UHGV virus genome: UHGV-0170246
Strand: one strand, 5' to 3'
Source of the DNA: a virus
Length of the DNA stretch: 45,982 nucleotides
Shown here one piece after another: positions 4,004-30,976 of the stretch (positions within the stretch are counted from its first letter, which is position 1; each line of letters opens with the position of its first letter). Both the position numbers and the translations under genes were made by a program. The notes beneath the pieces were generated by a model that was not told where the DNA came from, did not search any database, and was given only the letters and a program-made list of their open reading frames with translations.

Positions 4004-4119
4004 ATAGAATTATATAATTATATATTTATATAAAAAATGCTTTACAGGTGGGAAAAAATTTCCTAAGGTTATAACCGAAACCGAGCGATACCCGCCCTGG
4101 TTAAACCGGAGATAACCCG
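4004..4119 (+). repeat. Conserved promoter/leader cassette, copy A (AT-rich repeat, TTTACA -35 at 4041-4046, ~70-nt leader, GGAG RBS)
   Basis: Near-identical to 13072-13190 and 20695-20812; ends at the ATG of the downstream gene. Confidence 0.7.
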
Positions 4120-7414: not shown

Positions 7415-7644
7415 AACTACATTCTTACCCAACTGAGGTGAATAGTCCACTATTCATATAAAAAAATTTAGCTCATTAGCTCATGCAAAATGAAGGTTTT
7501 TAACTTATTTACGTGTAATCTCATGTAATAAAAGCGTTTTTTATTCCTTCATTATGAAGGGTATGACGTGTAATATGGCTTGGGGCCTTTCCGCCGATTC
7601 GCACCCGGGCACTGACTTTCAGGAAAGGATTATCCACTTGCCGT

Positions 7645-7664
7645 ACCACGCAGGCACAAACAGC
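7645..7664. repeat. Direct repeat copy 2 (ACCACGCAGGCACAAACAGC)
   Basis: See copy 1. Confidence 0.6.
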
Positions 7665-7728
7665 GTGCTTGCTCTCGCGTCATTTTCGTCGGTGGGGATG
7701 CCGTGAAACGGCCTGTAAGGGCCACACA

Positions 7729-7851
7729 ATGAAAAAATACTACATGTGTATTTTTATCGTTGTTACTGGAGCTTTGTTTACGCCACATGGGGAGGGTTGG
7801 AAGATTACTGATAACGCTCTGAATGTGACGATAAACATTAGCAGCAAGTAG
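7729..7851 (+). CDS. Possible small hydrophobic peptide (40 aa)
   Basis: In-frame ATG of ORF 7669-7851; one predicted transmembrane stretch (YYMCIFIVVTGALF); followed at once by a strong terminator; no recognisable family. Confidence 0.2.
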   Translation: MKKYYMCIFIVVTGALFTPHGEGWKITDNALNVTINISSK

Positions 7852-7856
7852 CGATT

Positions 7857-7880
7857 AGGCCCCTTCGGGGGCCTTTTTTA
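7857..7880 (+). terminator. Rho-independent terminator
   Basis: 7-bp stem AGGCCCC/GGGGCCT with TTCG tetraloop followed by TTTTTT. Confidence 0.75.
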
Positions 7881-8537: not shown

Positions 8538-8570
8538 TTATATAAATCTATAAAACTATAATTATATATT
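8538..8570. repeat. AT-rich motif locus (TATAAATCTATAAAACTATAATTATATATT) downstream of parG
   Basis: Member of the dispersed TATAATTATATA(AAT) motif family. Confidence 0.55.
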
Positions 8571-9246: not shown

Positions 9247-9350
9247 TATATAATTCTATAAATCTATATTTATAGAACGAGGTAAGCATAACCAACTTTT
9301 TGGCGGATGGAAAGTGTTTTATATAATTATATAAATCTATAATCATATAA
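9247..9350. repeat. Two AT-rich motif blocks upstream of parA (candidate par promoter/centromere)
   Basis: TATATAATTCTATAAATCTATATTTATAGA and TTATATAATTATATAAATCTATAATCATATAA read directly. Confidence 0.55.
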
Positions 9351-9780: not shown

Positions 9781-9797
9781 AAACCACATAATGTGGT
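9781..9797. promoter_or_regulatory. Operator-like palindrome AACCACATAATGTGGTT
   Basis: Perfect 6-5-6 inverted repeat, same half-sites as 813-829. Confidence 0.55.
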
Positions 9798-9839: not shown

Positions 9840-10496
9840 TCATAACCAGTTGACAACACTAACTACGCGGCCAAGAACTTTATAACGCTTAAATTCCTCG
9901 TTATTCAGATGCTTAGTGTTCATTTCAGCATCCCTTTCGGTTGACAGCATAACAGCATTGTCACCCGGTATGACTCTACAGTGCCTCAAAACAACCAGGC
10001 CATTTCTGTCTTCAAGGGCATAGATCCCCTCATGAATCTCTGTATCGTCTGTATTAATCAGGACTTGGGAGCCAGGGGATATTGTTGGTGACATTAACTC
10101 ATCGTTGCTCTGGAGAACTGACAGAGACGATGGGTTGATGTTCTTGCTTCGTAGAATCTCCTGTTCTATCGCCAGCACTGGCTTTTCTCCGGCGTGCGAT
10201 GCTATGTCATTTTTTATAGCTACAAGCCCAGGAATAACAGGAGCGTTAGTATTCTGGGGTGGGAACGGGTTATCTGTTAAGCACGCGATATAAGGCGCTG
10301 ATGCTTTCAGGGCGTGCGCGATTTTCTTGATGGCAGGTATCGATGGTTGTCTTAATCCGGCCTCATAGTTCTGCAAGGTGCTTAAGCCTATTCCAGTGAC
10401 TTGCTGGAGATCTCCGGCAGTCATGCCGGATTGTTTCCGTAGAGTCTGAATGCGCAGACCTATTTCTTTCTTGATGTTCTCGTCGTTGCTTTTCAT
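9840..10496 (-). CDS. CI-like phage repressor (N-terminal HTH, C-terminal LexA/S24-like domain)
   Basis: 218 aa; HTH TAGDLQQVTGIGLSTLQNYEAG; C-terminal region has the overall S24 pattern but the GxSM catalytic motif is not obvious on hand alignment. Confidence 0.75.
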   Translation of the reverse strand: MKSNDENIKKEIGLRIQTLRKQSGMTAGDLQQVTGIGLSTLQNYEAGLRQPSIPAIKKIAHALKASAPYIACLTDNPFPPQNTNAPVIPGLVAIKNDIASHAGEKPVLAIEQEILRSKNINPSSLSVLQSNDELMSPTISPGSQVLINTDDTEIHEGIYALEDRNGLVVLRHCRVIPGDNAVMLSTERDAEMNTKHLNNEEFKRYKVLGRVVSVVNWL

Positions 10497-10532: not shown

Positions 10533-10652
10533 TACCACATTTAGTGGTTTTCACATGGTAAGACGAGAGGTGGACCACAAATAGAAGGTTATTTTTTGTT
10601 TCGCCCATTGAAAAACTCACGATATGTGGTTTTAATACCACATATCGTGGTT
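10533..10652. promoter_or_regulatory. Immunity-region operator cluster: three palindromes of the ACCAC-N5-GTGGT type
   Basis: TACCACATTTAGTGGTT (10533-10549), ACTCACGATATGTGGTT (10615-10631), TACCACATATCGTGGTT (10636-10652) between the divergent repressor and rightward early genes. Confidence 0.65.
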
Positions 10653-10670: not shown

Positions 10671-11165
10671 ATGACCTTTCAGGAGTGGGTTGACGAAAAT
10701 GGAGGCCAAATTGGTGTTGCCAGAAAGTTTGGCTTTACGTCATCACTGATTGGTGCCTGGTATCGCTTCGAGAGATTCCCTCGTGCGGATAACCTGACGC
10801 TGCTGGTGGCGTATTCGGAAGGCCGGATTAACGTCCAGCAATGGGCGGCAGATTTTGCCGAACGTCAGCGCCAGCGTAGCGATGGCACATCGGTTCGGCA
10901 GAACAAGATCAAAGGGAATCTCCCTGTTAACTGCTTATCAAGGCTGAAAGCGGTTTTCTCTGAGCTGGGGATGCCTGCGGAGCGTTGCAATCTACGCGGT
11001 CCGCGATTCATTGCTCGCTGGAAACACTCACACGTAACCGTTTCAGAGGTTCGTGATGCGATTACCGTGCTGGAGCTTAAGAATAAAGATTCCAGCGATA
11101 TCGAGCTGATTCATAAGGAGATTAGCAACGCCCGGCGTTCAGCACTTGGGAGGCTTGAGGAATGA
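10671..11165 (+). CDS. Putative HTH regulator, first gene of the rightward early operon (Cro/CII position)
   Basis: 164 aa; divergent from the repressor across the operator cluster; function is by position only. Confidence 0.35.
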   Translation: MTFQEWVDENGGQIGVARKFGFTSSLIGAWYRFERFPRADNLTLLVAYSEGRINVQQWAADFAERQRQRSDGTSVRQNKIKGNLPVNCLSRLKAVFSELGMPAERCNLRGPRFIARWKHSHVTVSEVRDAITVLELKNKDSSDIELIHKEISNARRSALGRLEE

Positions 11166-12643: not shown

Positions 12644-13021
12644 GTGAGACGCGATCTGGATAGCTTGTTTGAGCTATGGGCGCTGTGGGTGCGCAATGGC
12701 TGCAACGCCCGTAGCGGTTTCGCGTCGATGTTAGAAATGATGATGGTTACGCGTTGCCAGTTTACCGGAGGGGGCGGCGCACCAAATGACTCACTGGAAA
12801 CCAGTATCGAGGGAGCTGTGACGGCCCTCACGGTAGTTGATGAGACTGCGGCGCTGGTTGTCCGAATTGAATACGGGGCGTGGGAGATTCGGGGCCTCGA
12901 CATAAATGCACCGCATATTGATAAAGCCCACGCCCTTTCTCTTAGTCTCAGACAGTATCGCCGGAAGCTGGCAAAAGCCAGGGCGTATGTTGTCGACTAT
13001 TTGAAAAAGCGAAGAGAGTGA
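12644..13021 (+). CDS. Possible Q-like antitermination protein
   Basis: 125 aa; N-terminal LWALWVRNG resembles the WGAW region of one Q family; weak and from memory only. Confidence 0.25.
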   Translation: MRRDLDSLFELWALWVRNGCNARSGFASMLEMMMVTRCQFTGGGGAPNDSLETSIEGAVTALTVVDETAALVVRIEYGAWEIRGLDINAPHIDKAHALSLSLRQYRRKLAKARAYVVDYLKKRRE

Positions 13022-13071: not shown

Positions 13072-13190
13072 AAATCTATAAATATATAATTATAGATTTA
13101 TATAAAAAGTGCTTTACAGGTGGGAAAAAATTTCCTAAGGTTATACCCGAAACCGAGCGATACCCGCCCTGGTTAAACCGGAGAAATCTG
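13072..13190 (+). repeat. Conserved promoter/leader cassette, copy B (TTTACA at 13113-13118)
   Basis: Near-identical to cassettes A and C; ends at ATG 13191. Confidence 0.7.
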
Positions 13191-14258
13191 ATGAATAAAC
13201 AAGTAATTATTTCTGACTGGATCAACAACCCTAACAGCCTGTTAAGCACTGATACTGGCTACCTATTACGCCATGTTAATGGTCGTATGGTCAAAAGCGA
13301 TGAGCACGAAACCTTTTTCTTTGTTGAAGACGATGGGCGTATCTATGAGGATGGTTACTCTTATGAAGCCCAAACTGGTTGTATCCCTGCGGAGCTGGTG
13401 GACGTAACAGAAGATCTGCGCAAAGCATGGCTTGAACAGCAGCAGCGCGGAGATGATTACGTAAACACCTATCAGGAACGCCAGAACGCGCGTCTTGCCC
13501 GATATATTGCTCGTGCAGAAAAAGCCAGAAAAGAAGGTGCGGTAGCGCATAAGCGAGCGCATGACCTGTTGGATGTGATCCCGTTAGGCCAGCCGATTTT
13601 AGTTGACCATTATAGCGCGAAAGGCCATCGCCGCCGTTTGTCTAAAGCTGATGCGTTATTCAGAAAAGCGTTTGTTGAATGCGAAAGTAAAGCATCACAC
13701 TACGAGAGCAAAGCCGCAGGTGTTGGTCGTAATGGAATTTCGTCTGATGATCCTGATGCGCTATTTAAGTTGCTTCGTAAGCTGCAAGGCTGCATGAAGT
13801 CACACGTCAAAATGAAGGCAGCAAATAAGGCCATTCGCAAATACAAAAAAGACCAATTACAGCAGCTTTCTGCATTAATCGATCTCAGGTTTACAGAAAG
13901 CGAAGCCAAAGAGTTACTGGCCGGAGATTTCTGTGGGCACATCGGATTCCCTTCATACGCACTGAGCAACAATAAGGCCGAAATCAAACGACTACAGAGC
14001 CGTATTAAGGAGCTTGAATCGGTCAAGTCTGTAACAGGAGCACAGCGCGAAGAATACGACGGCTTTTCTATGGAGATAGATCCAGAGGATAACCGCATCC
14101 TGTTTTATTTCCCTGGCAAACCAGAGGCAAACATTCGTTCGCTGCTTAAATCACGCGCCTTTAAGTGGAGTCCAACCCGTAATGCATGGGTTCGCAAGAT
14201 TACTCCAAACGCCCTGGCTGATGCCCGATATCTGAAAGAATCGCTATTGAAAGCCTGA
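13191..14258 (+). CDS. Hypothetical protein (355 aa), first gene after cassette B
   Basis: Long ORF with GGAG RBS in the conserved leader; family not recognised. Confidence 0.5.
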   Translation: MNKQVIISDWINNPNSLLSTDTGYLLRHVNGRMVKSDEHETFFFVEDDGRIYEDGYSYEAQTGCIPAELVDVTEDLRKAWLEQQQRGDDYVNTYQERQNARLARYIARAEKARKEGAVAHKRAHDLLDVIPLGQPILVDHYSAKGHRRRLSKADALFRKAFVECESKASHYESKAAGVGRNGISSDDPDALFKLLRKLQGCMKSHVKMKAANKAIRKYKKDQLQQLSALIDLRFTESEAKELLAGDFCGHIGFPSYALSNNKAEIKRLQSRIKELESVKSVTGAQREEYDGFSMEIDPEDNRILFYFPGKPEANIRSLLKSRAFKWSPTRNAWVRKITPNALADARYLKESLLKA

Positions 14259-14288: not shown

Positions 14289-14320
14289 GTATATAGAATT
14301 ATATATTTATATAAATGTAT
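14289..14320. repeat. AT-rich motif locus (TATATAGAATTATATATTTATATAAATGTATA)
   Basis: Shares the ATAGAATTATATA core with cassettes A and C. Confidence 0.5.
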
Positions 14321-14335
14321 AAGGACGCCTCGACA

Positions 14336-15856: not shown

Positions 15857-16106
15857 TTCCGCACGGCTACAGCTTGGTTTTTCACCGCTATCAAAAACCA
15901 TCGTGTTGGCCAAAATGCGCGATTTAGGTGACGGAACAAAACGCCGTGTAGGCAATGATCGCGGTCGTGATGTAACCAACGAGGCCGCACAACTCGTTTG
16001 GCATCTTGTCATGGCAGAATGCGGTGAAATCAATTGGGAGCTGGATGATGATTCTCGCATGGTGTTAAGGGCAGAAAAGCAGGGGGCAAACGATGAAAAA
16101 CCGTAA
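15849..16106 (+). CDS. Hypothetical protein
   Basis: ORF 15819-16106; GTG at 15849 preferred because of the AGGGGG RBS; start uncertain. Confidence 0.3.
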   Translation: MSNSARLQLGFSPLSKTIVLAKMRDLGDGTKRRVGNDRGRDVTNEAAQLVWHLVMAECGEINWELDDDSRMVLRAEKQGANDEKP

Positions 16107-16281
16107 AGCAAAGATTCTGTTAGTTCGTAGAAACGCTCCTGGCGTCTGGCAGTGGGTGAGACTCAGCAACCGACGGATGGGGTTGATGAAATATTACGGG
16201 ATGATGGATTGTGGTTTTTGCAAAAAGCCCAGCGCGGCGCAAAACCGCTGGAAAAACCACTTGCGCAATAAAGGAGAGTGA
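16093..16281 (+). CDS. Small hypothetical protein
   Basis: 62-aa ORF with AGGGGG RBS; overlaps the upstream stop. Confidence 0.3.
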   Translation: MKNRKAKILLVRRNAPGVWQWVRLSNRRMGLMKYYGMMDCGFCKKPSAAQNRWKNHLRNKGE

Positions 16282-16282
16282 T

Positions 16283-16648
16283 ATGGCACTGACGAAAAAA
16301 CAACGTGCAGAGCTGCGCATGAAGTTCGGCGGTCGCTGTGCTTATTGTGGCTGTGAACTTGGCGAAAAGTGGCATGCAGACCATGTAAAACCGGTCATTC
16401 GTTTTGCTGGAAATATGCTTCACCAGGAACGTGACGATATATCCAACATGGTTCCGGCATGCCACCCATGCAATCTGCACAAGCATTGCAGCAGCCTGGA
16501 AGATTATCGGCGAATTATCAGTGATGGTCGTCGTGAATTCCTTGCGTCCGGGAAAGGCAAAGCGCTGGTTCGTATGGGATTGGTTGAAATGAAATCTGAC
16601 CCGGTTGTGTTCTGGTTTGAAAAATATCAAGAAGGGGCTACGGCATGA
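16283..16648 (+). CDS. HNH endonuclease
   Basis: AAGGAGAG RBS before ATG 16283; CAYCGC..HADHVKP..CHPCNLHKH is a classic HNH Zn-finger layout. Confidence 0.7.
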   Translation: MALTKKQRAELRMKFGGRCAYCGCELGEKWHADHVKPVIRFAGNMLHQERDDISNMVPACHPCNLHKHCSSLEDYRRIISDGRREFLASGKGKALVRMGLVEMKSDPVVFWFEKYQEGATA

Positions 16649-17157
16649 CCACTATTACCAGAGAACAAGCTCTGAAAATTATTGAGGCAGCCGATGAGGT
16701 TATTAGTGCGCTTGCCGGAACTAACGAGGATGTTCACCTTGGTAGCGATAACATGCTACGTCTGTGGGATGACCTGAATGACCGTTACGCGCCGCCAGAA
16801 GTTGTGCGCGAACTGGCACGGATTGCACTGGCATCGCTGGAAGCGGAGCCTGTAGCGTGGCGATATCGCTACGTGAAAAAAGGCGTTACGGACTCTCAGG
16901 GGGAGCCGTGGGTTGGTGACTGGAAATATGTACCGACAAAAGAGGATTGCAACGACAGGCCGAACTATGAAATTCAGGCGTTATTCACGGCCCAGCCTGT
17001 GCCACTGACACCAGAAGGATTGATTAAAGCAGTGCGTTTCTATGAACAGGTAAAGCGTGAGAATCCGCCAGTCGAAACCGGAGCATGGAAAGACGCTGTT
17101 GATTGGGTACTCAAAGAGGCTTGCCAGGCTGTAAACATTGGTACCAAAGGAGATTGA
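16645..17157 (+). CDS. Hypothetical protein sharing an IALASLEAEPVAW motif with the next gene
   Basis: 170-aa ORF; ATGA overlap with the HNH gene. Confidence 0.45.
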   Translation: MTTITREQALKIIEAADEVISALAGTNEDVHLGSDNMLRLWDDLNDRYAPPEVVRELARIALASLEAEPVAWRYRYVKKGVTDSQGEPWVGDWKYVPTKEDCNDRPNYEIQALFTAQPVPLTPEGLIKAVRFYEQVKRENPPVETGAWKDAVDWVLKEACQAVNIGTKGD

Positions 17158-17158
17158 T

Positions 17159-17566
17159 ATGAGCACTTTTACCGACAAAGAAATGATTAAAGAAATCAAA
17201 GAGCGCATAGGCAGCCTGGACGTGAGAGACAATATTGAGCGCCGTGCTTATGAAATTGCTCTGGCATCGCTGGAAGCAGAGCCGGTAGCGTGGGAATGCG
17301 GTGAAAACATAATCCTGTTTAACCCTGACACAGTTGAAGCATACGCAAAACGTGCGGAAATATCACCTAAACCTCTATTCTCCGCGCCGCCAACGGCGGT
17401 AGTGCCGGATGATGGGCGCGAAAAGTTCGAAGCACTTGTCAGGTTTCATGCGGGTGATAAAAACCATGAAACATTATTGCTTCGTGCCAACGAAGGGATG
17501 AATTACCAAGACCCGAATGTTGATCTGGCGTGGATATTCTGGAAGTCCAGTCGTGAACATATATAA
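17159..17566 (+). CDS. Hypothetical protein, motif paralogue of the upstream gene
   Basis: AAGGAG RBS before ATG 17159; contains IALASLEAEPVAW. Confidence 0.45.
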   Translation: MSTFTDKEMIKEIKERIGSLDVRDNIERRAYEIALASLEAEPVAWECGENIILFNPDTVEAYAKRAEISPKPLFSAPPTAVVPDDGREKFEALVRFHAGDKNHETLLLRANEGMNYQDPNVDLAWIFWKSSREHI

Positions 17567-17908
17567 GCTGTAGTGAGAAGCCATGCGCTTACGAGCAGTA
17601 TTCAGATATTCAGAGCGGGTAATGAAGCACATACAACCGAAAACATGGCAGAAACTGGACTTTATGGGAGTTAAGTTGGAGAAGATTACTCAACTTAAGC
17701 AGTGGCATATTGGCGAATATTATGGAAGTCCTGGTCGGGATGTTCGTTTGGTAAAAAGTTGAGTATTGTTTTTTTATTGATCAATTAACCACAGAGTGAA
17801 GGTTTTTTTATGGGAAAGCCTTGTTTTAGGTGGTAACTGGGTGTAGTGTTTCATTTAACGTAGTAAAACTGCGTTAAGCGATTACCGCGTAATTTGTTGC
17901 TTTATGAA

Positions 17909-17939
17909 GCCCTGCCTTTTTCGGCGGGGCTTTTTTTTT
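17909..17939 (+). terminator. Rho-independent terminator just upstream of the lysis cassette
   Basis: 8-bp stem GCCCTGCC/GGCGGGGC (one G-U pair) followed by nine T. Confidence 0.7.
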
Positions 17940-17952
17940 AACGAGGATTTCA

Positions 17953-18348
17953 ATGTCAGCAGAACCAATTTCCGGTACGGCCGTTGCTGCTGGTGGCCTG
18001 ATGGGTGCCAGCGTTTTTGGTATTGCAACTGGTATTGATTACGGCGTTGTATTCGGGGCATTTGCTGGCGCTGTTTTCTATGTTGCTACAGCGGTGAATA
18101 TTAGCCGTCTCAAGCTGATTGGCTATTTCTTTACATCGTTCATTGTTGGAGTGATTGGAGCGCCGTTAGTTGGCTCATTTCTTGCCAAATGGACCAGCTA
18201 CAACGATCGTCCTCTGGATGCGCTTGGTGCGGTTATTGTGGCTGCATTGACCATTAAAATCCTCACGTTCGTAAACAGCCAGGATCTCGGTAGCATCTTT
18301 GGAATGCTTTCTCGCTTACGTGGAGGGGGTTCAAATGGTAAGCAGTGA
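17953..18348 (+). CDS. Putative holin
   Basis: 131 aa with several hydrophobic Gly/Ala-rich transmembrane segments; first gene of the lysis cluster. Confidence 0.55.
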   Translation: MSAEPISGTAVAAGGLMGASVFGIATGIDYGVVFGAFAGAVFYVATAVNISRLKLIGYFFTSFIVGVIGAPLVGSFLAKWTSYNDRPLDALGAVIVAALTIKILTFVNSQDLGSIFGMLSRLRGGGSNGKQ

Positions 18349-18631
18349 CCCGTCAGCACTGATTAATGCGGTGCTTTGCACAGTAATAGTAATGGCGCTG
18401 ATGCTTTATCGACGGAAAGACTCCAGGCATCGTCCATTTGTTTCCTTTCTGGCTTATATCTACGTCATTGTATACGCCAATGTTCCCTTCCGTTATGTGT
18501 TCGGTCTTTATCAAGAATCCCACTGGCTGGTGGTTATTGGAAATCTGATTATCTGCATCGTTGTTCTGTATTTCAGGGGCAATCTGGCGCGGATAGTTGA
18601 CGCATTAGGGTTTAATCATGACCAAAGATGA
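18335..18631 (+). CDS. Putative membrane protein (second holin or antiholin candidate)
   Basis: Internal ATG of ORF 18299-18631; two or three hydrophobic segments. Confidence 0.4.
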   Translation: MVSSDPSALINAVLCTVIVMALMLYRRKDSRHRPFVSFLAYIYVIVYANVPFRYVFGLYQESHWLVVIGNLIICIVVLYFRGNLARIVDALGFNHDQR

Positions 18632-19160
18632 GATTTTTAACAGCGTTCTTGGAAAAGAGGGCGGCTATGTGGATCACCCTGACGACAAGGGAGGCCCAAC
18701 AAAGTGGGGCATTACTCAGAACACTGCCCGTGCTCATGGATACCGTGGCGATATGCGCGATTTAACTCGCGAACAGGCTCTGGAAATCCTTGAGGCTGAT
18801 TACTGGTACGGCCCACGTTTTGACCAGATAGCAACTCTGTCGCCGGATATTGCCGCAGAACTGTGCGACACGGGCGTCAACATGGGGCCAACAGTGGCGT
18901 CAAAAATGCTTCAACGCTGGCTGAATGTGTTCAACCTGCGTGGGAAGCTGTATCCCGATTTGGATGCAGACGGACGAATCGGTCCACGTACCATTAATGC
19001 GCTGCGTGCTTATCTTGGGAATCGGGGAAAAGACGGCGAACGGGTGATGCTGACGTCGCTGAACTGTACGCAGGGCGAACGCTATCTGGAGTTGGCGGAG
19101 AAGCGCGAGGCTAATGAGTCGTTTGTCTACGGCTGGATGAAAGAGCGAGTGGTGGTATGA
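18618..19160 (+). CDS. Endolysin (GH108-like N-terminal domain with C-terminal peptidoglycan-binding domain)
   Basis: 180 aa; EGGYVDHPDDKGGPTKWGIT motif characteristic of GH108 lysozymes (recalled). Confidence 0.8.
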   Translation: MTKDEIFNSVLGKEGGYVDHPDDKGGPTKWGITQNTARAHGYRGDMRDLTREQALEILEADYWYGPRFDQIATLSPDIAAELCDTGVNMGPTVASKMLQRWLNVFNLRGKLYPDLDADGRIGPRTINALRAYLGNRGKDGERVMLTSLNCTQGERYLELAEKREANESFVYGWMKERVVV

Positions 19161-19435
19161 CTGGTTTGAAGGCCGTTTTGTCATTTATTGGCACAATTAT
19201 ATTGGTTGCATTTGGCGCGTTTGGTTTTGGTCGTATGAAGGGGCGAGAAAAGGCCGAAGATGAAGCTGAAAAGCAGCGCATTAATGAGAATGCAGCCGCC
19301 GTAAAAGCCACTGCGGAGCGGCGTATAGAAGTGACAAAAGAGGTGGGGAATGTACAGCAGAGTGTTAACCATATGGCTGATGACGATGTTGATCGCGAGC
19401 TGCGGGAGTCGTGGAAGCGTCCCGGTGGTGGTTGA
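19157..19435 (+). CDS. Putative i-spanin (Rz-like)
   Basis: 92 aa; N-terminal transmembrane segment then charged coiled region; follows the endolysin with ATGA overlap. Confidence 0.5.
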   Translation: MTGLKAVLSFIGTIILVAFGAFGFGRMKGREKAEDEAEKQRINENAAAVKATAERRIEVTKEVGNVQQSVNHMADDDVDRELRESWKRPGGG

Positions 19436-19559
19436 TACCGCCTGTGATTGGGTAAAGCCCATCTACCTGACTGATCACGACATCGATGTTATGGACCGAC
19501 AGACAAAGAAAGATATTCTGGCTCATAACAGGGCATGGGAAATCAACTGTCCAAAGTAA
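19350..19559 (+). CDS. Putative o-spanin lipoprotein (Rz1-like), overlapping the i-spanin gene in another frame
   Basis: 69 aa; signal peptide with lipobox LIASC. Confidence 0.5.
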   Translation: MYSRVLTIWLMTMLIASCGSRGSVPVVVDTACDWVKPIYLTDHDIDVMDRQTKKDILAHNRAWEINCPK

Positions 19560-19594
19560 TATATATTTCTATAATTATATAAATATATAGTTAC
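19558..19594. repeat. AT-rich motif locus (ATATATTTCTATAATTATATAAATATATAG)
   Basis: Contains the CTATAATTATATAAAT core shared with the par-flanking repeats. Confidence 0.5.
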
Positions 19595-19728
19595 AACATT
19601 CTATGCGCTTTTCTCATGGGCGCACGCATCAACCATGTTTGTCTGATATGCCGCCGCGCCCAAAAATCCTGAATTTATTGGCTGGGATTTTCGTGCGCGG
19701 CGCCACACCAGACAAACAAATCAAATAT

Positions 19729-19804
19729 GGCCCCTTAGCTCAGTGGTTAGAGCAGGCGACTCATAATCGCACGGTCATCGGTTCAAATCCGGTAGGGGCC
19801 ACCA
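19729..19804 (+). tRNA. tRNA with anticodon CAU (Met, or Ile2 if lysidine-modified)
   Basis: Hand-folded cloverleaf: 7-bp acceptor stem GGCCCCT/AGGGGCC, D arm, anticodon loop CTCATAA, T arm GGTTCAAATCC, encoded CCA; strongly resembles E. coli ileX as I recall it. Confidence 0.85.
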
Positions 19805-20111
19805 ATTCACTCTCACACATAAAGATAAGCGCGGTGGAGTTACTTCTTCGTGCTCATCTTTATGCGTGCCTGGTGCGCATTTCGGGCGAACGTGGGGCTA
19901 AGTTACAGGCAGGGCCTGTTATCCGCAAAGGGGTAAAAGCTGGAGCGGCACGGAACTGTAGCCGTGTTACCAAAACAGCGTTGTCGGGCGATATCCGGCA
20001 CACAACAGGCAAGGGCATTAATCAGTCTGGTTAGTGCCCTTTTCGTTGTGTTTGCTGTAGAGCTGGCCAGCGTTATGACTGCCGGAGATAAGCGCCGGAG
20101 GCACAATTAAC

Positions 20112-20699
20112 ATGGAGGCAATTGCATTGTTTAATCTGATTTATGCAGATCCCCCCTGGGAATACAAAGACAAGTGTAAGGATGGGAATCGTGGAGCTGG
20201 TTTTAAGTATCCAACGATGAAAGCTGAGGAGATTGCTCGTATTCCTGTCTGGCAGCTTGCTAATCCTGAATCGTGTTTGTTGGCCATGTGGTGGGTTCCG
20301 ACTCAGCCAGAAGAAGCGTTGCTGGTGGTTAAAGCATGGGGATTCAGGCTGATGACCATGAAGGGCTTCACATGGAACAAATGTGGTAGCCGACAACCAG
20401 ATAAGCTGGTGATGGGGATGGGGCATATGACTCGTGCAAACAGTGAAGATTGCTTGTTTGCGGTAAAAGGCAAACTGCCGACCCGTCTTGATGCGGGGAT
20501 CATTCAGTCGTTTACATCGCCTCGTCTGGAGCATTCTCGGAAGCCTGATGTGGTCCGTGACAAGCTGGTAAAGCTGTTAGGTGATGTTCCTCGTATTGAG
20601 CTGTTTGCTCGCGGTGATTTACCTGATGGCTGGCATGGCTGGGGCAACCAGTGCAATGGAGGTATCCAGTTGCATGATGCTCTCTGGCAAGTGGCATAG
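20112..20699 (+). CDS. MT-A70 family N6-adenine DNA methyltransferase
   Basis: 195 aa; DPPW catalytic motif (YADPPWEY) near the N-terminus. Confidence 0.8.
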   Translation: MEAIALFNLIYADPPWEYKDKCKDGNRGAGFKYPTMKAEEIARIPVWQLANPESCLLAMWWVPTQPEEALLVVKAWGFRLMTMKGFTWNKCGSRQPDKLVMGMGHMTRANSEDCLFAVKGKLPTRLDAGIIQSFTSPRLEHSRKPDVVRDKLVKLLGDVPRIELFARGDLPDGWHGWGNQCNGGIQLHDALWQVA

Positions 20700-20812
20700 A
20701 ATTATATAATTATAGATTTATATAAAAAGTGCTTTACAGGTGGGAAAAAAATTTCCTAAGGTTATACCCGAAACCGAGCGATACCCGCCCTGGTTAAACC
20801 GGAGATAACCCG
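20695..20812 (+). repeat. Conserved promoter/leader cassette, copy C (TTTACA at 20733-20738)
   Basis: Near-identical to cassettes A and B; ends at ATG 20813. Confidence 0.7.
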
Positions 20813-21082
20813 ATGAAAGTACAAGACCGTGAAGTAGTAAAAAACCTCCTGCAATACCTGACCTCAAAAAACCTGACGGGCAGCGTTGAGTTCCGTGAAG
20901 CGTTAAAACATTTCAACGTCACTACGGTTTATCGTTGGGAAAACGAACATTCTGAAAGACCGTATGTGGTGGATGTTTTTGCGCCTGATATTGAGTGCGG
21001 TTTTGAGCGTCATTCGTTCAAGGAGAAACATTCCGCTGATGTTTTTTGTGAGGTTGTATGTGCGGCAGGAGATGATGAGTGA
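20813..21082 (+). CDS. Hypothetical protein, first gene after cassette C
   Basis: 89-aa ORF with GGAG RBS in the conserved leader. Confidence 0.45.
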   Translation: MKVQDREVVKNLLQYLTSKNLTGSVEFREALKHFNVTTVYRWENEHSERPYVVDVFAPDIECGFERHSFKEKHSADVFCEVVCAAGDDE

Positions 21083-22861: not shown

Positions 22862-23533
22862 ATGACAAAACATCTTAATGTGGTTTCTTTACCACTTTCT
22901 GTGTTGATTGGTTATGAAAAGAACGCTCGCACACACTCCGTGGAGCAGGTAGATCAGATTGTTGCCAGCATACAGGAGTACGGATGGACTAATCCGATCC
23001 TGATAGACGAGAACAACGTTGTAATTGCTGGTCATGGTCGAATTGTTGCGGCCACTCAGTTGGGGATGGATGACGTTCCCTGCATTGTTCTGGAAGGGCT
23101 AACGGAGAATCAGAAGAAGGCATATCGTCTGGCCGACAACCGTATTCCGCTGAATGCTGGTTGGGATGAAGAGTTGTTAAGCGCGGAACTTGCAGATCTT
23201 GCGGCCGATGATTTTGCTCTGGACTCAATTGGTTTTACTCAGCGCGAACTGGATAACTTATTGAGTGCGGCGGTCTACGATGACACAGAGGGTATGGATA
23301 TCCCATTTGAGAAGGATGAGGCCAAATCAGGCGTAAAAGTTCAGTACCTGTCATTTGGAGGTCATAAAATCCCAGCAACGGATGGGAAGCGGATCGTTTT
23401 GACTGCGCGGTATCTCGTTATGTTGATGATAATGGCAGCTATATCGGATTTGTATCCGCATTGCTGGCTGGGGAGGTGTGCTGATGCTTCATCTCAATTA
23501 CGACATAACGCACCTACGCGGCGCGGAATATAA
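22862..23533 (+). CDS. ParB-like nuclease domain protein (paralogue 1)
   Basis: 223 aa; ParB/Srx motif AGHGR; about 55% identical by eye to the protein at 26151-26741 over the N-terminal ~130 aa. Confidence 0.7.
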   Translation: MTKHLNVVSLPLSVLIGYEKNARTHSVEQVDQIVASIQEYGWTNPILIDENNVVIAGHGRIVAATQLGMDDVPCIVLEGLTENQKKAYRLADNRIPLNAGWDEELLSAELADLAADDFALDSIGFTQRELDNLLSAAVYDDTEGMDIPFEKDEAKSGVKVQYLSFGGHKIPATDGKRIVLTARYLVMLMIMAAISDLYPHCWLGRCADASSQLRHNAPTRRGI

Positions 23534-24857
23534 CCCGCGTTTTATCGGTGAGGATGATCTTGCGAGGCTGGCGGAAAGCGTCAGGGAGCTGGGGCTTGTG
23601 AAGCCATTGATAGTGCGCGGCGATTTGCTGGTGGCGGGACACCAAAGGACGAAGGCGCTACGTAAGTTGGGAATAACGCGTGCTGCGGTGTATGTGTTGC
23701 CCTGTGAAACGACGGTATACGACGAAGTACGGTTTAACCAACTGCATAACGGAACGGATTTTGACAGCGGAGATGAGCGTTGCAGGGTGTCAGGTCTGGA
23801 AGATAAGCATGGTTTTGTTCAGGTATCGGCAAGCCAGATCTCAGGCAATATGCGCGCGAAAATGGCATATGTTCGAAAGAACATAGCGGAACTGGTTATC
23901 AAGTATGGGCCGTGGGGTGGTTGTGTTGCTACTCAGTCTGGTGAGGTTATTCACTGTGCTCAGTATGCATTAGCAGCGAAGATGACGCGCACACCGCTAA
24001 CGGTGTTTGTGATCCCTGATGTTGAGAAGGAAAAATACCAAAGTTATCTGAATAAAACTTATGGTGTATTTGAGTATTCTCACCTGGAGAAAACAACATA
24101 CATCCAGACGTATGCGCAGCTTATGCGGTTGCGTAATGGTGGCAGCCTGAAATCAAACCTGTATGAGTCGTTGATCCTCCCGATCATTGCCAAGACGCCA
24201 AGAGGAATTGATTTTGGTTCGGGGCAGGGAGACTACGCGCGAATGCTCAGGGCAAAGGGATATAACCTGCATGATCTAGAGCTTTTCCGCCGTAAGGGCG
24301 CTGGAAACACTCTGGATAGGACTGCAACAAACCGGATGATTGATACGCTGGTGGACGACTTAAAAACGCGAGGGCGTTACGACTACGTGATTTGCGATAG
24401 CGTTTTGAACTCGGTCGATAGTGTCGAGGCTGAATGGTCCGTTCTAACGGTTCTGAAAGGCCTGTGTAAAGCTGGTGGGTCAATATTCTTTTCTGGTCGT
24501 AGCCGTGGAGAGCTGGAAACAGTCCTGAAGCAAACACAAGCGGCGAGTTCCAAAAGCCGGCTTTATTTTATTGATCATAACGGTTTTACCGCGTTGTACC
24601 GGAAGGGGCACTGGTTTTACCAGAAGTTTCACTCTGATGATGAAGTGAAGCAGTTGTGTCGTGTACATGGTTTCAGGATTAAGCGGTCAATATTCAACTG
24701 TAAGAGCTGGTATTTGCACGTCATTAACGATGATTCCCTTAGTTGGGCGAGTCTGGAGAAAGCTGTTCGTTTTGAGTTTGAGTTGCCGTTGCCTGGTGGT
24801 TCAACAATCGGACGATCTGATGATGTGCTGGCGGCTTTCCGGCCGTTGATTAAGTAG
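23484..24857 (+). CDS. ParB-like N-terminal domain fused to a class I SAM-dependent methyltransferase-like domain
   Basis: GGGAGG RBS before ATG 23484; N-terminus LLVAGHQRTKALRKLG is ParB-like; C-terminal region has motif I IDFGSGQG, acidic post-I, hhhhD (YDYVICD) and GG motif; no DPPY-type motif seen. Confidence 0.55.
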   Translation: MLHLNYDITHLRGAEYNPRFIGEDDLARLAESVRELGLVKPLIVRGDLLVAGHQRTKALRKLGITRAAVYVLPCETTVYDEVRFNQLHNGTDFDSGDERCRVSGLEDKHGFVQVSASQISGNMRAKMAYVRKNIAELVIKYGPWGGCVATQSGEVIHCAQYALAAKMTRTPLTVFVIPDVEKEKYQSYLNKTYGVFEYSHLEKTTYIQTYAQLMRLRNGGSLKSNLYESLILPIIAKTPRGIDFGSGQGDYARMLRAKGYNLHDLELFRRKGAGNTLDRTATNRMIDTLVDDLKTRGRYDYVICDSVLNSVDSVEAEWSVLTVLKGLCKAGGSIFFSGRSRGELETVLKQTQAASSKSRLYFIDHNGFTALYRKGHWFYQKFHSDDEVKQLCRVHGFRIKRSIFNCKSWYLHVINDDSLSWASLEKAVRFEFELPLPGGSTIGRSDDVLAAFRPLIK

Positions 24858-26150: not shown

Positions 26151-26741
26151 ATGGCTCTAAAAATCGAATATTTACCAGTCGGTAAGCTGCTCAGATACGC
26201 CAAAAATTCACGGACTCATTCAGATGAGCAAGTTGAACAGTTGGTGAACAGTATCCGTGAGTTCGGTTTCACTAATCCTGTGCTGATCGATGAAAAGAAT
26301 GAACTGATTGCGGGGCATGGGCGGCTTGCAGCAGCCGAAATTCTGGAAATGGATAAAGTTCCAGCGATTCGGTTGAGTAACCTTTCTGAAAAACAGAAGA
26401 AGGCTTACAGGATTGCAGATAACAAGCTGGCCTTAAATGCTGGCTGGGATATGCAGCTTCTGGCCGAAGAAGTCAAAGCGTTAATGGATGATGATTTTGA
26501 TATTGATCTGCTTGGGTTTAATGATGCAGAGCTTGACGAAATGTTAAGCGATGAACAGCCGCAGGAAGAAGACGATAATTCTTCCCCTGTTGTTCAAATT
26601 AAGTACCTGGCTATTGATAAAGAACGTATTCCCGCGACGGATATGGAAATTGCATTGTTGCTGGATGTTTATCGTCAGTACCACGACGCGCATGAAACGC
26701 ATGAGGGATTTGTTCAGTATCTTGCTAATGGTTGCAAGTAA
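26151..26741 (+). CDS. ParB-like nuclease domain protein (paralogue 2)
   Basis: 196 aa; AGHGR motif; paralogue of 22862-23533. Confidence 0.7.
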   Translation: MALKIEYLPVGKLLRYAKNSRTHSDEQVEQLVNSIREFGFTNPVLIDEKNELIAGHGRLAAAEILEMDKVPAIRLSNLSEKQKKAYRIADNKLALNAGWDMQLLAEEVKALMDDDFDIDLLGFNDAELDEMLSDEQPQEEDDNSSPVVQIKYLAIDKERIPATDMEIALLLDVYRQYHDAHETHEGFVQYLANGCK

Positions 26742-29405: not shown

Positions 29406-30976
29406 ATATTCTTGATCGAGTTATTGCGCCGTTTTCACCTCAGAGGGCATTAAATCGAGCTTTGGCAAGAAAACGGTTAGAAGCACTTGAAGGTATTAAT
29501 AACCTTGGATATTCACGTCATGGTGCAAGCACTCATAAAAAATCATTAAGGGGTTGGTTTAGTAAAGCTGGTTCTCCTGATGATGATATTGTTAAAAATA
29601 TAGATAAATTGCGTGAGCGTTCTCGTGATCTCTTCATGGGAAACCCGCTATCGGTTGGCGCAATAAAAACTATCAGGACAAACGTTGTTGGTTCCGGTTT
29701 AAAACTAAATGCGAACATTGATGCCGATTTCTTGGGGATGACGCAGGAAGAAGCGCGAGCATGGGAAAAGCATGTTGAGCGTGAGTTTAGATTATGGGCT
29801 GATTCTCCAAATTGTGATGCATCAAGAATGTGTACTTTTGGACAATTGCAATCATTGGTCCAAATATCTGCGTTAACATCTGGCGATATATTTGCTGCGC
29901 TACCAGTTATTAAGCGTAAGGGTGTTATATATGATTTGTGCGTCTATTTAATTGAAGGTGATCGTGTTTGCAATCCAGAGGATCGTTTTATACCAAATCT
30001 TTACGGTGGCGTAGAGGTTGGTGAATTTAGCGAGCCTGTGGCGTACTGGGTTGCAAAACATCACCCAGCCGGGACTTCTGGTTTTGTAACCCGCAAGTGG
30101 GAACGTATTCCCGCATATGGGAGTAAAACAGGAAGAAGAAATATTCTGCATGTCATGCAGGATTTTGAAAGGCCTGGGCAACGCCGTGGCGTTCCTGTCC
30201 TTGCTCCTGTAATTGAAGCATTGAAGCAGTTAGGACGATACACCGATGCTGAATTGGTTGCTGCGGTTGTGTCAGGGATGTTTACTGTCTTTATTAAAAC
30301 AGACGCTCCTGATGGACCAGTCGGTGAATCGGGTATCCCTCAGTACGAGCAGATCGATAACCATGATGATAACACCCAAGAAATGGGGAATGGCTCCATA
30401 GTAAGTTTGGGTGAAGGTGAGTCGATAGATACAGCAAATCCCGGGCGACCAAATACGGCATTTGATGGTTTTGTTGTCGCCATATGCCGTCAAATTGGGG
30501 CTGCTTTAGAACTCCCTTACGAACTCTTGGTAAAGCATTTTACAGCAAGTTATAGCGCTAGCAGGGCCGCATTACTTGAAGCCTGGAAAATGTTCCGTAT
30601 GCGACGTGACTGGATGGTTCAGTCATTTTGCCAACCGATCTATGAGGAATGGTTGGCCGAAGCCGTTGCAAAAGGCCGTGTTATTGCCCCTGGTTTTTTT
30701 TATGGTCCTGAATATCGCGCTGCATGGAGCGGCGCCCAATGGTATGGCCCATCACAAGGCCAATTAGATCCCCTTAAAGAAGTTAAAGCTGCAAAACTGC
30801 GTGTTGAGGAAACATTCTCTACCCGTGAAAAGGAAGCGGCTGAAATGTCAGGTCTTAACTGGGAAGAAACCGCACAAATCTGTGGCAGAGAAGAGAATGC
30901 TCGCCGTGAGTTGGGGCTTATTACACCTCCTGTTTCTGAGGTAAATGAACAAAATATGGAGACTGATGATGCCTAA
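29402..30976 (+). CDS. Portal protein (lambda gpB family)
   Basis: 524 aa; position and length; ATGA overlap with the upstream gene. Confidence 0.8.
   Translation: MNILDRVIAPFSPQRALNRALARKRLEALEGINNLGYSRHGASTHKKSLRGWFSKAGSPDDDIVKNIDKLRERSRDLFMGNPLSVGAIKTIRTNVVGSGLKLNANIDADFLGMTQEEARAWEKHVEREFRLWADSPNCDASRMCTFGQLQSLVQISALTSGDIFAALPVIKRKGVIYDLCVYLIEGDRVCNPEDRFIPNLYGGVEVGEFSEPVAYWVAKHHPAGTSGFVTRKWERIPAYGSKTGRRNILHVMQDFERPGQRRGVPVLAPVIEALKQLGRYTDAELVAAVVSGMFTVFIKTDAPDGPVGESGIPQYEQIDNHDDNTQEMGNGSIVSLGEGESIDTANPGRPNTAFDGFVVAICRQIGAALELPYELLVKHFTASYSASRAALLEAWKMFRMRRDWMVQSFCQPIYEEWLAEAVAKGRVIAPGFFYGPEYRAAWSGAQWYGPSQGQLDPLKEVKAAKLRVEETFSTREKEAAEMSGLNWEETAQICGREENARRELGLITPPVSEVNEQNMETDDA

Follow-up and report, generated by a model that had tools for sequence, protein, structure and literature searches.

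A conserved operator-like and hairpin-rich leader with a strong terminator precedes the lysis genes of an Escherichia coli phage-plasmid

Results

The lysis cassette and its terminator

The DNA analysed here (UHGV virus genome UHGV-0170246; the whole stretch of 45,982 nucleotides is referred to as the window) comes from a ~48-kb E. coli phage-plasmid with an IncFII-type RepA, ParA, a lambda-like head and a P2-like contractile tail, whose + strand holds everything from position 10671 to about 44500. The original prediction had placed a holin, a second membrane protein, a GH108-type endolysin and an overlapped Rz/Rz1-like pair behind a terminator in 17570-19559, and all five genes were found there, at 17953-19559 (Table 1), including hydrophobic segments in both holins and in the i-spanin and a lipobox in the o-spanin. 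The first holin-family protein, which has three to four hydrophobic segments, is preceded by a ribosome-binding site (GAGGA, 17943-17947); the second may act either as a holin or as an antiholin. The endolysin carries an EGGY motif in its GH108 catalytic domain and has neither a hydrophobic segment nor a hydrophobic N-terminus. The o-spanin, whose lipobox cysteine is residue 18, is encoded in the +1 frame relative to the i-spanin gene; the two genes share 86 nt, and the o-spanin gene continues for 124 nt past the end of the other, an arrangement of the 'overlapped' type. At the DNA level, the spanin genes show 88% identity to the pair annotated in phage mEp390. In RefSeq relatives the o-spanin gene is not annotated.

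Membrane proteins, a peptidoglycan-degrading enzyme and a two-component spanin, the three constituents of a holin-endolysin-spanin cassette, are thus all present. Gene order, domain families, lipobox and overlap architecture are shared with canonical Gram-negative cassettes with overlapped spanins (e.g. that of mEp390), from which the cassette does not differ in any essential way; particular to it are two holin genes of different Pfam families and a short i-spanin. In itself, it is an ordinary phage lysis gene set.

Table 1. Positions in the window of the lysis genes, the features of their leader and related elements
Feature	Position	Strand	Evidence or description
cI-like repressor (XRE helix-turn-helix, S24-like C-terminal part)	9840-10496	-	PHROG transcriptional repressor, 9.6e-27
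Candidate antiterminator, 125 aa, distant relative of phage-21 Q	12644-13021	+	Family profile and Foldseek
Promoter and 5'UTR, one of three copies	13075-13190	+	AT-rich 8-bp repeats, TTTACA-N17-TAAGGT, shared leader to ATG
Accessory 59-aa gene (phrog_9594)	17583-17762	+	PHROG match, E 1.2e-44
Conserved upstream box	17766-17792	+	T-rich tract and ATTGATCA ATTAACCA; conserved in 39 loci of three lineages
Operator-like site ACCAC-AGAGT-GAAGG	17788-17802	+	Same family as the immunity-region operators
Hairpin SL1	17799-17822	+	Stem GAAGG.../...CCUU, variable loop; RNAalifold consensus
Near-invariant 57-nt core	17819-17875	+	G/U-rich GGUGGUAACUGGGUGUAGUGUUUCAUUU, then hairpin SL2 (UUAACGUAG-UAAAA-CUGCGUUAA)
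Lineage-specific segment	17877-17905	+	Small hairpin, then U-rich single strand with conserved UUGCU
Strong intrinsic terminator	17906-17939	+	11-bp stem (7 G-C), 6-nt loop, nine U; -20.8 kcal/mol
Holin-family protein, 131 aa (Phage_holin_8)	17953-18348	+	Pfam E 1.7e-37; PHROG holin 1.2e-40
Second holin-family protein, 98 aa (Phage_holin_3_7)	18335-18631	+	Pfam E 8.9e-18; PHROG holin 1.7e-32; 3 hydrophobic segments
Soluble endolysin, 180 aa	18618-19160	+	Glyco_hydro_108 1.8e-27; PG_binding_3 9e-27
i-spanin, 92 aa	19157-19435	+	PHROG Rz-like spanin 5.9e-32; N-terminal membrane anchor, hydrophobic residues 1-27
o-spanin lipoprotein, 69 aa	19350-19559	+	PHROG Rz-like spanin 2.9e-33; lipobox IAS-C
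AT-rich motif of 8-bp units, one of eight copies	19560-19589		Downstream border of the exchangeable lysis module

The strong terminator that had been predicted ahead of these genes was confirmed, with its stem beginning at 17906 instead of 17909 (stem 17906-17933, nine T 17931-17939), but the 386-bp gap in which it lies (17567-17952), originally regarded as a leader only, carries a conserved 59-aa gene. The terminator is among the strongest intrinsic terminators on the + strand and contains the longest T run in the window; it is kept at all 39 loci compared, with 98.2% of cells paired in its stem and one stem pair altered on both sides (C-G to U-A). The number of loose terminator-like patterns in the region is close to expectation (5 vs 4.5), but this terminator stands far above that threshold. 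From about 8050 up to this terminator, including the interval that follows the promoter at 13075-13190, no other strong terminator was found on the + strand. As the 13 nt between its end and the holin ATG are too few to accommodate a separate promoter, the lysis genes need read-through of the terminator.

The leader

The 59-aa gene is under purifying selection in comparison with the Salmonella and L009 lineages (pN 0.19-0.26, pS 0.78-0.90), with third codon positions taking 26 of the 41-46 differences. It is missing from the complete relative pMB9880_3 and is thus dispensable. The same absence, together with homologues found only within its own phage-plasmid family and the lack of a sequence match in PDB, led us to reject its product as the antiterminator. 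At about 17759 there is a recombination junction, and the gene directly upstream, here the 59-aa gene, is a different one in other relatives.

The remainder of the leader contains a conserved element of ~180 bp, which contains the operator-like site and, behind it, a hairpin-rich stretch of ~150 nt running into the terminator, and which is new and previously unannotated. The Salmonella plasmid pAR-0407-1 has the same element ahead of a non-homologous lysis cassette. At the downstream border of the exchangeable module, a 42-nt exact match to the Salmonella relative is found.

The hairpin-rich stretch is most conserved in its 57-nt core, where only 6 positions vary across the 39 loci, although an exact 20-mer within it (17841-17860) served as search bait for most loci and part of the invariance is therefore forced. 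The core is ~95% identical to that of the Salmonella and L009 lineages, whereas synonymous sites of the adjoining coding DNA are saturated; by inspection, it contains stop codons in every frame. The segment between core and terminator exists in three distinct versions in the three lineages, all of them U-rich. The fold has a z-score of -4.6, with 97% of cells paired and compensatory changes in three pairs, a number reached by 64 of 500 shuffles, and since only SL1 and the terminator vary, covariation support is thin. SL1 has 93.8% of its cells paired, and in the Salmonella lineage two of its U-A pairs have become A-U. A covariance model of the stretch (R1) detected no second copy, nor any diverged copy in the relatives L043-L047. 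A leader peptide (MGKPCFRW, 17810-17836, following GAAGG-N7-ATG) was considered and rejected, as its start is ATA in L004 and it meets an immediate stop in L009 and L022.

The operator-like site at the head of the element belongs to a family that is strongly overrepresented in the window: the pattern ACCAC-N5-GWRGK gives 11 strand matches at seven places against 0.31 expected. Three of these (10534, 10574 and 10637) sit in the 174-bp divergent region that adjoins the cI-like gene and lies between it and the early operon, and the remaining ones at 814 (the repA promoter), 7278, 9783 and 17788. The sites lie mostly at or near promoter regions. In the Salmonella relative the motif recurs at mostly matching places, among them its immunity region, its lysis leader and the DNA ahead of repA. 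Across the 39 loci, the half-sites of the leader copy are invariant while the 4-5 nt spacer is hypervariable. A Cro-like protein is encoded at 10671-11165. The cI-like protein is presumed to bind the ACCAC-N5-GTGGT operators, and judged by its sequence the leader site would be bound by the repressor as well. Since this site matches the palindromic operators of the immunity region, any promoter there would be repressor-gated and not constitutive like PR'.

The upstream box that overlaps the operator-like site could be a promoter or a factor-binding region. Behind its T-rich tract it can be read as two similar 8-bp units (17776-17791) or, alternatively, as a dyad TTATTG-N3-CAAT(T)AA; no second copy or repeats of the box, which would be expected of shared late promoters, were found in the window. 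Neither a simple scan nor inspection of the 39 aligned relatives revealed a recognisable sigma-70 -35/-10 pair in the leader (17567-17952), but the scan is insensitive, as it missed the three-copy promoter and called no + strand promoter in the early-promoter region either. Motifs of alternative sigma factors or of Ogr/Delta-type promoters were not seen by eye, and there is no Cys4 zinc-finger protein among the small ORFs.

A probable remote relative of phage-21 Q in the early operon

No early protein matches a recognised Q or N family at threshold in Pfam, PHROGs, NCBIfam or by PDB sequence. The protein encoded at 12644-13021 itself has no Pfam match at E up to 0.01 and does not reach the curated threshold of the Q21 family (PF06530; PDB 6P18/6JNX). 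A profile of its family (112 representatives), however, has Q21 as its sole significant match in PDB (E 2.6e-5), with positions 4-91 aligned to Q21 residues 11-95 and the motif FELWALWV corresponding to LELWGAWV of Q21, and the most frequent Pfam family among the members, PF06530 (Phage_antitermQ), is matched by 10 of the 112 (best 1e-4). With an AlphaFold model of the protein (pLDDT 87.4), the top seven Foldseek matches are all Q21 chains, followed by sigma region 4; these Q21 matches are weak (prob 0.63-0.91, TM 0.44-0.54, E 0.3-0.6, large rmsd), and Q21 chains lead the lists in two independent models. With its counterpart in the Salmonella relative the protein shares 92% identity. Its short Q-like branch comprises ~130 clusters at 50% identity and has a weak link to the PA0613 family; our search of the literature on PA0613 or a pyocin antiterminator yielded nothing usable. 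Given that its modelled fold is near sigma region 4, the protein could instead be an activator or a sigma-like factor.

Directly behind the Q-like gene lies the listed copy of the three-copy promoter. The other copies are found at 4003-4119 and 20703-20812, and a copy other than that behind the Q-like gene lies ~590 nt ahead of a strong terminator (T run at 21323), beyond which the morphogenesis genes follow. In the Salmonella relative, a version of this promoter particular to it occupies the three corresponding places.

Discussion

Comparison with lambdoid late gene control

In lambda, the PR'/tR' unit comprises the Q gene, a constitutive sigma-70 promoter with a pause element, and the terminator; the fold of Q21 is related to sigma region 4 and its binding element consists of two 8-bp direct-repeat subsites (bioRxiv 10.1101/651190). 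The likeness of the leader to such a unit, which had been proposed originally, holds in part. As in the lambdoid switches of lambda, phage 21 and the Stx phages (Q, PR', 6S/StxS, tR', S-R-Rz/Rz1), the lysis genes come first behind a strong intrinsic terminator that separates them from a promoter, the late genes downstream are all on the same strand, and a short hairpin-rich stretch has the terminator at its end, like 6S RNA and StxS (PMC7547250; bioRxiv 10.1101/651190); a remote Q21-family candidate is encoded in the early operon. In contrast to the lambdoid arrangement, where the Q gene is immediately upstream of the promoter-terminator unit, the Q-like gene is found 4.5 kb before the terminator, with a different promoter, the three-copy one, behind it. 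In addition, the leader shows no visible constitutive sigma-70 promoter and has an immunity-type operator-like site, the Q relative is much shorter (125 vs 162 aa) and passes no curated family threshold, and the morphogenesis genes come with a promoter copy of their own and additional terminators.

Taken together, we have moderate confidence that the lysis module is gated by the terminator, with read-through by the Q-like protein as the most likely way of opening it and the operator-like site as a second lock. According to this model, the lysis module would form the far end of a rightward early/middle transcription unit from which the terminator separates it, and its genes would be expressed only by RNA polymerase reading through. 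The agent of read-through would most likely be the Q-like protein, which we infer from its remote relationship to Q21; polymerase might be modified at the three-copy promoter behind the Q-like gene, 4.8 kb upstream, or alternatively at an unrecognised promoter in the upstream box. The operator-like site would tie the lysis leader to the lysogeny switch. Transcripts stopped at the terminator would end in the ~150-nt hairpin-rich stretch and might give rise to a small RNA as a by-product; both the existence of this RNA and any function are suggested here by analogy with lambda 6S and StxS.

Alternative explanations

A self-contained late unit of the lambda type is a tentative possibility. In this case, a promoter in the upstream box would start transcription at about 17793, yielding an RNA of ~147 nt that ends at 17939, and an antiterminator loading there would open the lysis and late genes. 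The layout fits PR'-6S/StxS-tR'; position 17793 is invariably a purine and the bases after it are hypervariable, which resembles a transcription start; the two 8-bp units recall the direct-repeat subsites of the Q21 binding element; and with the module border at about 17759 the unit travels with its own upstream box. That operator-family sites are mostly found near promoters points in the same direction. However, no -35/-10 pair with the key -10 bases kept in the 39 loci could be recognised, the candidate hexamers differ between loci at bases that a -10 should keep, the Q-like gene is 4.5 kb away, and the repressor operator would make the promoter unlike the constitutive PR'.

The stretch might also be the gene of a trans-acting, Hfq-type small RNA with a G/U-rich seed like that of GcvB or DapZ, acting on host or phage mRNAs and ending at the terminator that also closes the early operon, which would be compatible with gating by the terminator; we regard this as rather unlikely. 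The order of parts, namely a 5' hairpin, a G/U-rich single strand, hairpins and a U-tailed terminator, is that of GcvB RNA, with a near-invariant single strand, a U-rich stretch and nine terminal U in the present case, and a conserved 'seed' beside variable stems is the usual pattern of small RNAs. Membership in GcvB (RF00022) was nevertheless rejected: the match in the window, although covering the whole length (E 1e-5), scores 36.9 bits against a gathering score of 42, it drops to 28.4 bits in L009 and 26.5 bits in L022, two loci of the L009 lineage, and the Salmonella locus gives no match with E up to 1. The stretch also has no R2/SL4 part, and the resemblance is one of layout, not of membership; apart from GcvB, Rfam returned only weak, terminator-driven matches. 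Candidate antisense targets in its own genome argue against a role in trans as well, as the longest complementary runs (13 nt at most) are no better than those of shuffles and the best match, 11 bp of complementarity to the anti-repressor leader (7121-7131), is lost in Salmonella. The absence of a recognisable promoter is a further difficulty for a separate gene.

It is improbable that the RNA decides the fate of the terminator in cis, either in the manner of HK022 put, which reportedly is a cis-acting antiterminator RNA, or as an antiterminator structure bound by a protein or ligand, in which case a factor of the Q type would not be needed. A near-invariant hairpin-rich stretch does stand directly upstream of the terminator in every relative, whichever lysis cassette follows, but the segment touching the terminator is the least conserved part, Rfam offers nothing beyond terminator-driven matches, and a constitutive cis-antiterminator would render the adjoining terminator pointless. 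A classical attenuator that sequesters the 5' arm of the terminator was rejected on inspection, since only 4-5 bp can be drawn and the registers differ between the three lineages.

Finally, the terminator might merely end the operon, with lysis genes expressed by leaky read-through and the conserved block serving as a recombination linker between exchangeable modules, for which the mosaic junction at 17759, the exchangeable cassette and the conserved non-coding blocks on both of its sides could be adduced, but this is hardly probable because it leaves unexplained the invariant half-sites around a variable spacer, the compensatory changes in SL1 and the terminator, and the near identity of the core beside saturated synonymous sites, and because the terminator is very strong for a leaky gate.

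Silencing of lysis in a phage-plasmid

The question at stake is how phage-plasmids keep lysis silent during plasmid life. N15 is a temperate phage kept as a plasmid, in which a single repressor acts through its operators on the early lytic operon as well as on the gene for plasmid replication, and in which the gene of a Q-type antiterminator is located in the early operon, not beside the late genes. The phage-plasmid studied here would resemble N15 in its plasmid lifestyle, in repressor-type sites at the early operon and at repA, and in the position of its Q-like gene. The two differ in their other equipment: the N15 plasmid is linear, and N15 has a siphovirus tail and a telomerase, whereas the replication and partition genes and the virion of the present phage-plasmid are of the types given above; in none of our searches was sequence similarity to N15 found.

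With terminator gating as the favoured explanation, two locks appear to act on the lysis genes, an immunity-type operator-like site and a strong terminator, and the sole candidate key is a Q-like protein too divergent for annotation. Going further, one may speculate, with clear reservations, that the ~150-nt stretch is a new regulatory RNA of phage-plasmids that is controlled by the repressor, ended by the terminator guarding lysis and active on host or phage mRNAs in trans or else on the timing of lysis in cis, alongside an unrecognised short branch of the Q21 family. StxS provides a precedent for a small RNA produced by termination ahead of phage late genes (PMC7547250). Should the conserved stretch prove to be a real RNA, it would be the second example after StxS of a regulatory RNA arising as a by-product of terminator-gated late genes, and one found in a laboratory strain that is non-pathogenic and accessible to genetics; otherwise, what is left is a well-built but ordinary lysis cassette.

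Distribution

A search of 185,579 species-representative genomes with the 20-mer bait gave no match, and the bait matches at the viral loci L015 and L016 were discarded as chance matches inside a coding region. The plasmid pSLy3 was considered as a member of this phage-plasmid group and rejected, as it belongs to the SSU5 supergroup. The more distant relative L045 has the Q-like gene and lacks both the RNA-like element and the operator motif, which speaks against the favoured explanation. The phage-plasmid family is present in 70 of 5426 complete E. coli genomes (~1.3%), including that of the reference strain ATCC 25922, whose plasmid NZ_CP009073.1 has the element at 29596-29778, and occurs also in Salmonella, in Klebsiella and as infectious Yersinia phages.

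Lysis genes, terminator and leader

Pfam and PHROG matches returned the same five lysis genes, at the same positions, that had been read from the sequence (see the table), and the expected membrane features, namely the hydrophobic segments of the holins, the i-spanin anchor and the o-spanin lipobox, were all present. The o-spanin gene starts 86 nt ahead of the i-spanin stop codon in the +1 frame and extends 124 nt past it, the 'overlapped' architecture of the original prediction; the DNA of the annotated spanin pair of phage mEp390 is 88% identical. The lysis cassette itself is ordinary.

The predicted strong terminator ahead of the holin gene (17906-17939) was also recovered; it is among the strongest classical + strand terminators of the window and has its longest T run. 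Since this T run ends at 17939 and is followed by the ribosome-binding site GAGGA (17943-17947) and the holin ATG (17953), there is no room for a promoter between terminator and holin gene. The stretch preceding the terminator had been regarded as a plain leader, and this part of the claim did not hold. It contains an ORF of 59 aa (17583-17762) with a full-length match to phrog_9594 and, at the protein level, relatives in two diverged lineages. In comparisons between lineages pS is 0.78-0.90 (saturated) and pN 0.19-0.26, with differences mostly at third codon positions; it is thus a real gene under purifying selection. The gene is dispensable for whatever lies downstream. It is missing from 9 of 38 related loci within the sequence compared and wholly absent from the complete plasmid pMB9880_3, where another gene abuts the same downstream element, the junction lying at the upstream stop codon near 17759. 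Further upstream, genes 16645-17157 and 17138-17566 are paralogues with a common N-terminal segment (IALASLEAEPVAW) and count as accessory genes of the variable 'ead/Ea22-like' or DUF551 type, in what is a mosaic, nin-like region.

A conserved element in front of unrelated lysis cassettes

Relatives of the element at 17763-17939 were gathered by BLAST with the leader, exact-word scans of viral contigs and an exact-word metagenome scan; an exact-word scan of species-representative genomes yielded no copy. The 39 copies including the window (29 distinct sequences) fall into three lineages, an E. coli type, a Salmonella type (plasmid pAR-0407-1 and locus L006) and a third type (loci L009 and L022). 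The element is present in E. coli ATCC 25922 and is unannotated in every relative examined. It begins with a conserved box, rich in T, that contains ATTGATCA|ATTAACCA. Next come AACCAC, which never varies, a hypervariable run of four to five bases whose first is always a purine, and TGAAGG, likewise invariant, at which a hairpin opens that has a variable loop. The 57-nt core (17819-17875) varies at only six positions and is followed by a U-rich lineage-specific segment and the terminator. Between lineages the core is about 95% identical, while neighbouring neutral sites are saturated. Positions 17841-17860 served as search bait, and invariance there is forced in the scanned collections; the Salmonella plasmids came from BLAST, not from bait scans, and two further baits elsewhere in the core gave zero additional true loci.

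In the Salmonella relative pAR-0407-1 the element stands before a non-homologous lysis cassette (phrog_20 holin, phrog_7 lysozyme with a hydrophobic N-terminus, embedded spanins), whose downstream border is the AT-rich block that also follows the o-spanin in the window. Control element and lysis genes are therefore separable modules.

A 153-nt stretch folds better than 200 of 200 shuffles (z = -4.6). In the consensus fold the 5' hairpin is separated from a second hairpin by a G/U-rich middle with little structure, and the variable segment and the terminator follow; 97% of cells are paired. Changes on both sides occur in three pairs only (two in the first hairpin, one in the terminator), a number also reached by 64 of 500 shuffles, and the two central helices are invariant and hence uninformative on structure. 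On this comparative evidence an RNA structure is plausible, not proven. At gathering thresholds no Rfam family covers the element. The one sub-threshold match, to GcvB, was taken as a resemblance of layout only and membership was rejected, the window element scoring 36.9 bits (E 1e-5) against a gathering score of 42, the third lineage 28 and 26 bits, and the Salmonella lineage having no match listed at E up to 1.

Operator-like sites

Where the cI-like gene (9840-10496, - strand) and the early operon diverge, the DNA between them holds three copies of the palindromic ACCAC-N5-GTGGT or of ACCAC-N5-GAAGG. Across the window, ACCAC-N5-GWRGK occurs at seven places (11 strand matches versus 0.31 expected), and the copy in the lysis leader, ACCAC-AGAGT-GAAGGTT, is closest to the middle immunity site, ACCAC-AAATA-GAAGGTT. 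This accounts for the invariant half-sites flanking a free spacer in the element. In the Salmonella relative the pattern recurs in the immunity region, upstream of repA, beside the cI-like gene and in the lysis leader, with no copy listed at the anti-repressor leader; zero copies occur in a more distant relative, whose early genes differ. Judged from these motifs, the site appears to tie the lysis leader to the lysogeny switch, the putative binder being the cI-like protein or, through its Cro-like N-terminal domain, the first early protein. Through the repA-side operator at the TATAAT, plasmid replication may likewise be under phage repressor control, as it is in N15.

Features of the lysis region and of the regulatory sites in the window
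Feature	Position	Strand	Remarks
Operator	814-828		abuts TATAAT just upstream of repA
Operator	7278-7292		upstream of isrK/C4 leader of anti-repressor operon
Operator	9783-9797		just past 3' end of cI-like gene
Immunity-region operators (three)	10534-10548, 10574-10588, 10637-10651
Operator-like site, lysis leader	17788-17802
Three-copy promoter + 5'UTR	4003-4119		precedes gene 4120-4500
Three-copy promoter + 5'UTR	13075-13190		precedes gene 13191-14258 (DUF3560); directly behind gene 12644-13021
Three-copy promoter + 5'UTR	20703-20812		precedes gene 20813-21082
TATATAATTATAGAWWTATATA copies	4003-4032, 8539-8568, 9247-9276, 9320-9349, 13075-13104, 14292-14321, 19560-19589, 20703-20724
Intrinsic terminator	17906-17933 + nine T	+	-20.8 kcal/mol
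Phage_holin_8 protein	17953-18348		3-4 hydrophobic segments (simple hydropathy scan)
Phage_holin_3_7 protein	18335-18631		3 hydrophobic segments (simple hydropathy scan)
Endolysin, GH108 + PG_binding_3	18618-19160		N-terminus without hydrophobic stretch
i-spanin	19157-19435		PHROG 'Rz-like spanin' family; single N-terminal anchor (hydropathy scan)
o-spanin	19350-19559		PHROG 'Rz-like spanin' family; signal peptide, lipobox I-A-S-C at end
ORF6N anti-repressor-like gene	5646-6791	-
C4 antisense RNA	7033-7120	-	Rfam gathering-level, 84 bits
isrK	7145-7218	-	Rfam gathering-level, 70 bits
ryfA	7581-7879	+	Rfam gathering-level, 135 bits
Long inverted repeat	about 19620-19720
tRNA, anticodon CAU	19729-19804		labelled Met or Ile in relatives
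MT-A70 methyltransferase	20112-20699		adjoins ParB/Srx-domain genes
ParB/Srx-domain proteins (three)	22862-23533, 23478-24857, 26151-26741		between lysis region and terminase genes

A candidate Q-type antiterminator

The product of gene 12644-13021 (125 aa) was left unnamed by every library searched. A profile of its family (112 representatives) found phage-21 Q (Q21) as its sole significant PDB match (E 2.6e-5), and among family members PF06530 (Phage_antitermQ) was the most frequent Pfam model, with those for ECF-sigma and sigma region 4 next. For two AlphaFold models (pLDDT 77.5 and 87.4) Q21 chains ranked top among 350,542 PDB chains, ahead of sigma region 4, an order to be expected given that the Q21 fold has been reported to be related to ECF sigma region 4 (bioRxiv 10.1101/651190). 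The N-terminal motif FELWALWV matches LELWGAWV of Q21, and the protein of the Salmonella relative is 92% identical. Since the scores are modest, we call the protein a candidate Q-type antiterminator. Its unnamed family (110-150 aa) comprises 130 clusters at 50% identity, and a DUF1064 gene precedes the Q-like gene in Vibrio phages as in the window. A weak sub-threshold match to the NCBIfam 'PA0613 family' (E 2.5e-4) was also seen; in the P. aeruginosa R-pyocin cluster, PA0613 lies directly upstream of the holin.

Later strong + strand intrinsic terminators have T runs at 21323, 22196, 22727 and 40353, the first three lying after the third promoter copy and before the terminase, head and tail genes; terminators also occur within the morphogenesis genes, in the rightward late direction. 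These late-direction terminators are consistent with a need for processive antitermination, and a processive antiterminator would make sense of those at 21323, 22196 and 22727. A 48-nt block directly beyond 22727 recurs unchanged in the Salmonella relative.

Promoters and control of lysis

A unit of AT-rich 8-bp repeats, TTTACA-N17-TAAGGT and a common leader up to the start codon is found three times in the window, and a version particular to the Salmonella relative occupies all three corresponding places there, a distribution that suggests three co-regulated operons. No strong + strand terminator lies between the 13.1-kb copy and 17906. The AT-rich motif TATATAATTATAGAWWTATATA, of about 8-bp units, occupies eight intergenic places (25 strand matches versus 0.01 expected), three of them flanking parA, and all eight corresponding places in the Salmonella relative; it may be a centromere or global-operator site of a partition protein or a binding element of the Q-like protein.

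On balance, the most likely mechanism is that the lysis cassette represents the distal, terminator-gated end of an early/middle transcription unit, opened by the Q-like protein after induction. In the plasmid state, repressor would occupy the early operators, and probably the leader site too, and stray transcription would end at 17939. Upon induction the Q-like protein would build up and render polymerase terminator-resistant, the modification site being the three-copy promoter or a promoter, so far unrecognised, within the leader box, and holins, endolysin and spanins would be produced. The self-contained PR'/tR' unit of the original prediction, in which a leader promoter and terminator make lysis dependent on antitermination, differs mainly in where transcription starts and seems less likely. 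A sigma-70 consensus scan of the + strand from 16,000 to 20,500 found no promoter, and inspection of the 39 loci showed no conserved -10. Little weight attaches to the scan, as it also misses the three-copy promoter, which is clearly real since it occurs three times with its whole 5'UTR.

Transcripts halted at the terminator would carry the conserved hairpin-rich stretch at their end and could give a small RNA; lambda 6S RNA and StxS arise at tR' (PMC7547250). Either mechanism would also accommodate an sRNA that acts in trans. The element joins features not described together, an immunity-type operator-like site, a near-invariant RNA-like core and a strong terminator, in combination with a very divergent Q21 relative encoded elsewhere in the genome.

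The phage-plasmid carrying the lysis region

The window is a nearly complete phage-plasmid. Circular E. coli plasmids of 47-50 kb show 97.8% identity to it over the query, and the Yersinia pestis phages vB_YpM_39, 41 and 44 are 95-98% identical. The RefSeq annotation of one relative lists an IncFII-type RepA, ParA, a RelE/ParE toxin pair and a cI-like repressor; in this annotation the head module is lambda-like and the contractile tail P2-like. Essentially all genes between about 10,670 and about 44,500 are on the + strand. The C4, isrK and ryfA hits upstream of the ORF6N anti-repressor-like gene make up a P1-like immI-type region, with a promoter of its own and a hairpin resembling a terminator (seven T). 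At the repA start, 46 nt (869-914) match the Salmonella relative exactly and contain a minus-strand hairpin with a T run, which probably terminates an antisense copy-control RNA. The stretch 19600-20110 separates the lysis cassette from the MT-A70 methyltransferase gene. In each of the three lineages block 20054-20109 has weak Rfam hits of rydB type, at 25-29 bits against a gathering score of 50, and blocks starting at 19951 and 20053 are 48-49-nt exact matches to the Salmonella relative.
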